Shown here piece after piece: positions 38,271 to 38,346 of a stretch of 64,000 nucleotides of DNA. The notes beneath the pieces were generated by a model. It searched no databases. It worked only from the letters and a program-made list of their open reading frames with translations, and was not told the origin of the DNA. Source of the stretch: a virus; the IMG/VR virus record IMGVR_UViG_3300045988_089178; one strand, 5' to 3'. The first letter of the stretch is position 1; every line of letters begins with the position of its first letter. The translations under genes and the position numbers were made by a program.

Positions 38271-38346
38271 TGGCAGCGGAGGTGGGATTCGAACCCACTC
38301 CCGAGGTTTTAGAGACCCCTGCGCTAAACCATTACGCTACTCCGCA
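38271..38346 (-). tRNA. amber suppressor tRNA, anticodon CUA, Gln-like features
   Basis: Anticodon stem GGGGU/ACCUC; loop CU-CUA-AA; T-arm GUGGGUUCGAAUCCCAC; G73, U1:U72, CCA encoded; 5' half resembles the phage tRNA-Gln(UUG). Confidence 0.7.

Follow-up and report, generated by a model that had tools for sequence, protein, structure and literature searches.

A conserved phage tRNA with the anticodon CUA and the probable reading of UAG as glutamine in a human-gut phage

RESULTS

We analysed a 64,000-nucleotide stretch of viral DNA (IMG/VR record IMGVR_UViG_3300045988_089178; the whole stretch is called the window), which is part of a gut phage of roughly 146-149 kb and carries at 38271-38346, on the minus strand, a tRNA gene with the anticodon CUA. 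We consider it very probable that this gene yields a functional elongator tRNA in the infected cell and that UAG is there read as Gln and not as a stop (genetic code 15). The positions of this tRNA and of the other features that bear on this reading are collected in Table 1.

In-frame TAG codons in the phage genes

When stop-to-stop frames were read with TAG as a sense codon, a set of minus-strand genes became whole. These frames hold 56 TAGs, and the TAGs lie inside Pfam domains of 10 genes, which bears out a preliminary description of the window that had reported in-frame TAGs in real genes. For example, the Phage_lysozyme2 domain of the lysin (residues 3-165) covers six TAGs, and the conserved C-terminal motif of the second tail-fibre-like gene runs on past the last TAG. 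The frames terminate in TAA (50) or TGA (17), and we found no gene that needs TAG as its stop. TAG accounts for ∼11% of Gln-type codons overall, for 9 of 23 in the lysin and for 8 of 20 in the GIY-YIG gene. Its use is heavy in lysis and virion genes and patchy in replication genes, the pattern reported for recoded gut phages (10.1101/2021.08.26.457843); the genes for gyrase A and B, ligase, PhoH, NAPRTase, the Thg1-like protein, RNA ligase, the DUF2828 protein and the major-vault-protein (MVP)-shoulder protein are large and have no TAG. A comparison of open reading frame (ORF) lengths under four codes was not decisive alone, as the majority of genes are TAG-free.

Gln in homologues at the TAG sites of the window

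The database homologues of the lysin have Gln at the TAG columns. Many of these homologues are recoded relatives translated with code 15, and we therefore made the comparison at the DNA level. In two diverged relatives (L001 and L002), CAA or CAG faces the TAGs of the window at conserved columns of the lysin gene, and some TAGs of the relatives face CAA in the window. The cleanest test drew on 58 loci from bacterial genome records and used only lysin genes without any TAG, including those of standard-code isolates. At columns 40, 146, 225 and 274, these TAG-free homologues have Gln in 20/20, 19/21, 42/43 and 42/43 cases, always encoded by CAA or CAG, and the remaining five lysin TAG columns are variable in them. 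Lysin homologues carried by isolates of Oscillospiraceae, Butyrivibrio and Clostridiales are free of in-frame TAGs; these isolates are carriers of a homologue and need not be hosts of the phage.

Across the window, 49 minus-strand TAG positions could be compared, each with a non-TAG codon aligned to it in one or more of 85 related loci. When the fractions at the single positions are summed, Gln accounts for 19.4 of the 49, and it is the majority residue at 21 of them; Trp accounts for none, and the rest is split among Lys, Asn, Gly, Arg and others. The BLOSUM62 log-likelihood at the TAG positions is 26.2 for Gln, compared to 7.6 for Lys, 7.4 for Arg and 5.4 for Glu. As a control, the same procedure recovered the right residue for seven of eight sense codons; the exception, TGG, fails because its only codon is excluded by the design of the method. 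Similar results are obtained at single codons outside the lysin, where the non-TAG relatives have Gln at codon 161 of the NAGPA/SPOR gene (7/7), codon 231 of the zinc-ribbon gene (11/13) and codon 36 of the AAA ATPase gene (17/20). These alignments indicate that TAG stands for Gln in this phage. The preliminary description had claimed as much, and the claim is supported by TAG sites that are CAA or CAG in homologues, including TAG-free bacterial genes. The example codons that it offered, in DnaB (QLNADY-X-NSE) and ThyX (KFV-X-NII), are at variable positions and are uninformative; solved ThyX structures have Arg at the TAG position, and solved DnaB structures have variable residues.

A canonical tRNA fold with an open first pair

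ARAGORN calls a tRNA at exactly 38271-38346(-), with the anticodon CTA at gene position 35, and the Rfam tRNA model RF00005 matches 38274-38346(-) with 59.8 bits (gathering score 29; E = 2e-10 for the whole window), which is mid-range among the scores of the window's other tRNAs. The 76-nt, class I tRNA reads UGCGGAG-UA-GCGU-AAUGGUUUA-GCGC-A-GGGGU-CUCUAAA-ACCUC-GGGA-GUGGG-UUCGAAU-CCCAC-CUCCGCU-G-CCA. It has the 7/4/5/5-bp stems, U8, G18G19, U33 and UUCRANY-type T-loop of a canonical elongator tRNA, the discriminator is G73, and the CCA end is encoded in the gene. The minimum free energy (MFE) fold from ViennaRNA is an exact cloverleaf with position 1 unpaired; the z-score of -0.88 is unremarkable and usual for tRNAs, and was given no weight. 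The cloverleaf and its anticodon had been proposed in the preliminary description and are confirmed by the ARAGORN run, the Rfam match and the MFE fold; the loop CU-CUA-AA and G73 were likewise correctly given there, as read from the sequence. The 1:72 pair, described there as weak, is in fact a U•U mismatch and is the sole departure from the canonical elongator cloverleaf. Among the 31 tRNAs of the window (ARAGORN), this is the only one with the anticodon CUA.

Conservation of the tRNA and of its unpaired end

The tRNA is 97-99% identical in two relatives (L009 and L010), compared to 82% for the upstream ORF and 70% for the spacers; the neighbouring protein in these loci is ∼80% identical to that of the window. 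The 18 distinct class I CUA tRNAs of related phages share one cloverleaf, in which 94.2% of cells are paired and 16 of the 21 stem pairs have both-sided (compensatory) changes. None of 500 shuffles reached the observed level of covariation, and slid controls were 36-49% paired. The anticodon loop CUCUAA, G73 and G10:C25 are invariant among the 18 relatives. This covariation and conservation indicate that the CUA tRNA is under selection. In a survey of 80 related loci of only 20 kb each, at least one CUA tRNA was found within 10 kb of the DUF2828 gene in 37; comparison of the presence of a CUA tRNA with that of in-frame TAGs over the 80 loci gave no discrimination, as nearly the whole family has TAGs.

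The open end is itself conserved. Position 1:72 is unpaired in 15 of the 18 distinct class I CUA tRNAs, mostly as U•U and also as C•U or U•C. The CUA tRNA of L010 differs from that of L009 only by a change of U1 to C, with the mismatch kept, and from that of the window by this change and a one-base deletion in the D-loop. By comparison, among the 40 distinct tRNA-Gln sequences of the same phages, 32 combine G73 with A1:U72 or U1:A72, and five of the eight tRNA-Trp combine G73 with A1:U72. In the literature that we searched, we found no discussion of a conserved unpaired 1:72 in the suppressors of this family as against a paired 1:72 in its tRNA-Gln and tRNA-Trp.

A further class of CUA tRNA in related phages is 89-95 nt in length, has a long variable arm and frequently follows directly on tRNA-Ser(UGA) (Table 1). 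Where the sequence could be read to the 3' end, most of these tRNAs combine G73 with a weak or open 1:72. The loci have too few TAG sites for the amino acid of the long-arm tRNAs to be read, and the lysin on the L035 contig has no TAG. A tRNA with an 8-nt anticodon loop is found at L068 4313-4386 (GUUAAAAG), and the same gene is in L069, L071, L072, L075, L080, L081 and L083; the L081 form is GUUAAAAG/UUUAAAAA. Except for L081, which has a long-arm CUA tRNA, these loci have no CUA tRNA in the 20 kb fetched. The lysin on the same contig has TAG at the invariant Gln column 40 in L068, L069, L071 and L075 and in the related L073 and L082. A tRNA with the anticodon UUA (ochre-type) is found at L021 1109-1181.

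Identity elements and the charging of the tRNA

We asked which cellular tRNA the CUA tRNA resembles, and found no answer in similarity. The tRNA shares acceptor pairs 2-6 (GCGGA/UCCGC) with the phage's tRNA-Gln(UUG), and both contain GUAAUGGU; an acceptor and D-loop match to this tRNA, which had been described earlier, is thus literally true, but it is not specific to Gln, since tRNA-Trp and tRNA-Met are equally alike. (The tRNA-Gln(UUG) had been placed at 46445-46518, ten bases off the ARAGORN call in Table 1.) Global identity within the window is 0.69 to Trp(CCA), 0.67 to Gln(UUG) and 0.67 to Met(CAU), and the tRNA-Met at 44547-44622 has as many acceptor positions in common with the CUA tRNA. 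Comparison with 678 tRNAs of the related loci gave no winning ancestry. Similarly, anticodon-masked isotype profiles made from the family's tRNAs score the CUA tRNA of the window at 38.8 bits for Cys, 33.2 for Ser and 31.9 for Gln; Cys ranks first largely because the T-arm is identical to that of the nearby tRNA-Cys. The CUA tRNAs of some relatives are clearly Gln-like by profile (36-43 bits versus ∼20), and one is Trp-like. As neither similarity nor profiles gave a winner, we claim no ancestry for the CUA tRNA of the window. The nearby tRNA-Cys(GCA), at 37212-37298(-), is 87 nt long and has a long variable arm, which is unusual for tRNA-Cys; tRNA-Cys genes of 84-87 nt are also found in many relatives.

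The identity set of E. coli tRNA-Gln consists of G73, U1-A72, G2-C71, G3-C70, G10, U/C34, U35, G36, A37 and U38, and glutaminyl-tRNA synthetase (GlnRS) depends on positions 1-72 and 3-70 (PMC9976931). The CUA tRNA has six of these ten items (G73, G2-C71, G10, C34, U35 and A37). In E. coli, amber suppressors of tRNA-Trp and tRNA-fMet are glutaminylated (PMC9976931), and charging of suppressors by the host GlnRS has been proposed for recoded phages generally (Borges et al., 10.1101/2021.08.26.457843). Charging by GlnRS is compatible with the U35, G73, G2:C71 and G10 of the CUA tRNA and with its open first pair. The combination of G73 with a weak 1:72, which the preliminary description had taken as an argument for Gln identity, is not discriminating, since it is equally the signature of the phage's tRNA-Trp.

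Several observations weigh against a tRNA that is charged with Gln and reads UAG. First, sequence similarity does not tie the CUA tRNA to tRNA-Gln. Second, by the E. coli rules four Gln items are absent: the tRNA has U1•U72, C3-G70, A36 (the loss of G36 is unavoidable) and A38. The phage's own tRNA-Gln(UUG) also has C3-G70, and therefore the E. coli rule may not transfer here. Third, an unpaired 1:72 is initiator-like and weakens the binding of EF-Tu in E. coli, which would be a cost for an elongator tRNA. Fourth, many TAG positions are at variable sites, where the alignment says little. Fifth, the host is only guessed to be one of the Clostridia/Oscillospiraceae. Finally, our view of the genome spans ∼82 kb (the window and its flanks) of ∼148 kb, and a second suppressor, a release factor or a synthetase is possible in the remaining ∼65 kb; no release factor or synthetase genes were found in the window and 10 kb beyond each end.

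The conserved mismatch might itself be related to charging. Tentatively, and with more doubt than confidence, we suggest that the phage family keeps 1:72 of its class I suppressors deliberately unpaired, as an evolved identity switch that would turn a CUA tRNA, whatever its ancestry, into a good substrate for GlnRS, offsetting the lost G36 at some cost in EF-Tu binding; suppressors would then have been recruited several times.

Other explanations of the CUA tRNA

The same outcome, Gln at UAG, could be reached by another route, in which a non-discriminating host glutamyl-tRNA synthetase (ND-GluRS) loads Glu and GatCAB amidates it to Gln; we regard this route as the less likely one, though a real alternative for a Bacillota host. 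It is used by many Bacillota that lack GlnRS, and the hints to the host point to Bacillota/Clostridia. The phage also encodes a YqeY-like protein at 23946-24395(-) (Pfam 32.2 bits, cut-off 27; match to B. subtilis YqeY, 1NG6, E = 0.023), which is related to the tRNA-binding tail of GatB, but this link is a domain resemblance only and a weak pointer. Position 1:72 is a key element for GluRS2 and the amidotransferases; however, the enzymes are reported to need a paired U1-A72 (PMC9976931), while 1:72 is open in 15 of the 18 relatives, and there is no known ND-GluRS that reads an anticodon with A36.

A derivation from tRNA-Trp (CCA to CUA, one base change), with Trp inserted at UAG, would agree with the highest global identity in the window and with the loop CUCUAAA, which is one base from the CUCCAAA of tRNA-Trp. 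The bacterial tRNA-Trp identity set consists of G73, A1-U72, G2-C71, G3-C70, G4-C69, G5-C68, A9, C34, C35 and A36 (PMC9976931), of which the CUA tRNA has seven of ten (G73, A9, G2:C71, G4:C69, G5:C68, C34 and A36), and 19% of phage suppressor tRNAs are predicted to be Trp-like by isotype (PMC10879173). However, C35, the central Trp determinant, is lost (the tRNA has U35), A1-U72 is replaced by U•U and G3-C70 by C3-G70, and the amber suppressor of E. coli tRNA-Trp is itself glutaminylated (PMC9976931). Moreover, Trp is aligned to none of the 49 TAG positions, and four lysin TAG columns are almost invariant Gln in the TAG-free homologues, so that insertion of Trp is very improbable.

It is about as improbable that the CUA tRNA is a decayed or chance tRNA-like sequence and that read-through comes from a host suppressor or from another phage tRNA encoded beyond the window. 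The genome is in view only in part, suppressor tRNAs are found in only ∼40% of TAG-recoded phages (Borges et al., 10.1101/2021.08.26.457843), and a subgroup of the relatives has TAG at lysin column 40 and no CUA tRNA in the 20 kb fetched. Against this stand the far better conservation of the CUA tRNA than of its flanks, the strong covariation over relatives with an invariant anticodon loop, and an Rfam score that is typical of the other tRNAs of the window.

That the gene encodes a pyrrolysine tRNA is scarcely conceivable: the 'tRNA-Pyl' label given by ARAGORN is due to the CUA anticodon only, the one feature in common. The hallmarks of tRNA-Pyl are an anticodon stem of 6 bp, a variable loop of 3 nt, a single base separating the acceptor stem from the D stem, a D-loop that is small and lacks G18G19, and PylRS as a partner. 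The tRNA of the window is instead of standard build: U8 A9 separate the acceptor stem from the D stem, the D-loop has 9 nt and contains GG, the anticodon stem has 5 bp and the variable loop 4 nt, and the T-loop is UUCGAAU. There are no pylS or pylBCD-like genes in the ∼82 kb seen, and the conserved TAG sites align to Gln and not to Lys-like residues.

Expression context and proposed mechanism

The upstream tail-fibre block ends in a 19-bp terminator hairpin (39792-39752), and between this block and the CUA tRNA there is a predicted sigma-70-type promoter with a perfect extended consensus (Table 1). The promoter is 98-100% conserved in L009 and L010, compared to 82% for the ORF behind it, and is likely to be the start of the transcript that carries the CUA tRNA. 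A 104-aa ORF follows the tRNA: an AAGGAGG site begins 7 nt past the CCA, and the ATG is within 20 nt. This ORF is co-oriented and its ribosome-binding site (RBS) is only 7 nt from the CCA, and it is therefore probably co-transcribed with the CUA tRNA. This layout suggests that a unit without TAGs would be transcribed by host polymerase and supply the suppressor, in agreement with the code-switch model in the literature (10.1101/2021.08.26.457843).

Among the tRNA genes at 37212-55732, almost all are directly preceded by (T/A)ATAT or a close variant in the 5 nt upstream, which might point to a leader or a processing context common to these genes. All of the window tRNAs that were listed have CCA in the gene itself.

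In the mechanism that we propose for the reading of UAG as Gln, host RNA polymerase would transcribe the CUA tRNA from the conserved promoter together with two small TAG-free ORFs, and the transcript would be processed to the 76-nt tRNA, with its CCA end already encoded. A host enzyme, most likely GlnRS to judge from the E. coli identity work, would then charge the tRNA with Gln; GlnRS is known to accept tRNAs with a CUA anticodon through U35, and G73, G2:C71, G10 and the open 1:72 should help. The charged tRNA would compete with release factor 1 at UAG, and the full-length lysin, cell-wall hydrolase, tail fibres, GIY-YIG nuclease, DnaB, ThyX and other proteins would be made.

Table 1. Positions of the CUA tRNA, its expression context, comparator tRNAs and genes with in-frame TAGs (window coordinates, or locus coordinates where a locus is named)
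Feature	Position	Strand	Evidence or remarks
Amber-suppressor tRNA, anticodon CUA	38271..38346	-	ARAGORN, Rfam RF00005, MFE cloverleaf, conservation
Anticodon CUA (TAG on plus strand)	38310..38312	-	Read from sequence; loop C32 U33 C34 U35 A36 A37 A38
Sigma-70-type promoter, TTGACA-17 nt (with TG)-TATAAT	38784..38812	-	Consensus scan; 12/12 matches
Small Cys-rich ORF, ∼108-111 aa	38436..38771	-	No TAG, no Pfam match; between promoter and tRNA; called gene in near-identical L086/L087
104-aa ORF	37936..38250	-	No TAG; called gene in L086
tRNA-Gln(CUG)	46377-46451	-	Comparator; A1:U72, G73
tRNA-Gln(UUG)	46455-46528	-	Comparator; A1:U72, G73
tRNA-Trp(CCA)	49914..49988	-	Comparator; A1:U72, G73, loop CUCCAAA
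Lysin (Phage_lysozyme2 + Amidase_2 + SLH)	13463..14872	-	9 in-frame TAGs; Pfam domains span them
NAGPA/SPOR cell-wall hydrolase-like	14875..15729	-	2 in-frame TAGs
Four tail-fibre-like genes, Mtd_N-type N-termini	39799..44027 (39799-41136, 41162-42334, 42352-43413, 43434-44027)	-	2, 5, 2 and 5 TAGs
GIY-YIG nuclease	5317..6228	-	8 in-frame TAGs
Zinc-ribbon repeat protein	25826..26698	-	6 in-frame TAGs
DnaB helicase, cut by window start	1..1379	-	2 in-frame TAGs; full 512-aa gene in L146
ThyX	4414..5040	-	1 in-frame TAG
AAA/nSTAND ATPase	44662..45783	-	1 TAG after first ATG, 2 in whole stop-to-stop frame
Long-arm CUA tRNAs of related loci	L012 8237-8327; L019 2832-2926; L020 3072-3160; L035 4567-4657; L056 6908-6998; L057 6279-6368; L081 3153-3241; L084 1115-1206; L085 1377-1466		

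The phage, its probable host and other features of the window

The window has 36% G+C, with nearly all genes on the minus strand, and an array of 31 tRNA genes and a transfer-messenger RNA (tmRNA). Near-identical contigs of 143-149 kb are found in human-gut assemblies, and the lysin protein of the 146,360-bp IMG/VR contig 3300045988_084596 is identical to that of the window. The genes for replication are of an SPbeta-like type (YorF, YorH, AAA_24, DnaB and a PHP-type (PolC-type) DNA polymerase III alpha). A megablast search of GenBank phages with 16 kb of the window gave no match, and the best tblastn match among GenBank phages was ∼40% amino-acid identity in one protein, to Bacillus Tsamsa-like phages. 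The host is probably a Clostridia/Oscillospiraceae bacterium, a pointer that comes from lysin homologues: two phage-sized contigs with such a homologue were binned with metagenome-assembled genomes (MAGs) of 'Eubacterium' and Oscillospiraceae, and full or partial homologues are found in isolates of Oscillospiraceae, Flintibacter, Muriventricola, Acutalibacter, Colidextribacter, Butyricicoccus and Butyrivibrio.

Several other RNA features were noted in and around the tRNA array. The tmRNA lies inside the array at 48762-49077(-) (Rfam 116 bits; tag peptide DNDYFENYLAA), and the relatives L020, L023, L056 and L059 have tmRNAs with other tags. A match like that of a type-P1 twister ribozyme, at 52639-52696(-) (51.7 bits, E = 3.7e-9, below the gathering score of 67.2), is directly 5' of tRNA-Ser(GCU) (52541-52633) and may act in the processing of a phage tRNA by self-cleavage. 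A 117-nt tRNA at 46091-46207(-) (Rfam 49.8 bits) is missed by ARAGORN; with introns allowed, it is called as tRNA-Lys(CUU)-like, 42 nt are inserted into its anticodon loop, and the gene does not encode CCA. A weak tRNA-Sec-like match at 45817-45900(-) (33 bits, gathering score 47, E = 0.003) adjoins tRNA-Leu(UAA).

Among the proteins, one of 813 aa with an MVP-shoulder domain (32594-35035(-)) adjoins a 506-aa DUF2828/DUF7788 protein (35447-36967(-)), and the DUF2828 gene is conserved in >180 IMG/VR contigs and in Bacillus Tsamsa-like phages. A possible tRNA-repair set (Thg1-like protein, RNA ligase, AAA_33 kinase and metallophosphatases) is located at ∼19500-21100 and ∼26800-28100(-), by homology to L004 and L086. 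NAPRTase and NAD synthase are also present in the window.

DISCUSSION

The system closely resembles that of the code-15 gut phages known from metagenomic surveys (crAss-like, Lak and Jade/Sapphire/Agate among others), which likewise have a phage CUA tRNA and TAGs aligned to Gln (10.1101/2021.08.26.457843; PMC9523058). In-frame TAGs are most frequent there too in the genes for lysis and structure, with variable use in those for replication, and no phage synthetase was seen (here over ∼82 kb). Their hosts use the standard code, as the host of this phage may do. The assignment of TAG to Gln has been proven by mass spectrometry in crAss-like phages (Peters et al., PMC9523058). The phage studied here differs in its apparent lineage, with a genome of ∼146-149 kb and SPbeta-like replication genes, and has no release factor gene in the 82 kb examined. 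Another human-gut phage, phAss-1 (proposed Phassvirus), has a genome of ∼136 kb, ∼36 tRNAs and TAG in 28% of its ORFs (Babkin et al. 2023, PMC10607447), and it likewise has tRNA-Sup-CTA genes, lacks a dedicated synthetase and is predicted to infect a host of the Clostridia type (PMC10607447). It differs in having two or three suppressor genes, while one is seen here, and as the megablast of 16 kb against GenBank phages gave no match, the phage of the window is not a close relative of phAss-1.

The E. coli suppressors supE (glnV44), a tRNA-Gln(CUA), and su+7, a tRNA-Trp(CUA), likewise have CUA on a tRNA with G73 and a weak 1:72, and GlnRS, whose recognition is dominated by U35, charges both with Gln (PMC9976931). 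They arose from cellular tRNAs by a single base change and have a paired 1:72, whereas the CUA tRNA described here is a conserved phage gene with U1•U72, C3:G70 and A38. A suppressor tRNA associated with a theta (hepatitis delta virus (HDV)-like) ribozyme likewise comes from a recoded gut phage with many tRNAs (Kienbeck et al. 2024, PMC10879173). However, no HDV-like ribozyme matched in the tRNA region here, even at E up to 0.5, and there is no room for a theta ribozyme because the RBS and ATG follow the CCA within 20 nt. Thus, at the level of sequence, the CUA tRNA has every feature of a code-15 suppressor that could be tested and has neither the build of tRNA-Pyl nor an associated ribozyme.

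The recoding of TAG to Gln by phage suppressor tRNAs was already established, and the picture of stop-codon recoding is unchanged by our findings. They add a well-supported case, for which TAG-free bacterial homologues give evidence at codon level, in a lineage without a close relative among GenBank phages. They also have a direct consequence for annotation: code 15 is needed for this phage, as the standard code splits the lysin, tail fibres, DnaB, ThyX and others into fragments. The open 1:72 end and the host-type promoter provide handles on how a phage turns a host Gln-charging enzyme and competition with the release factor into a code switch.

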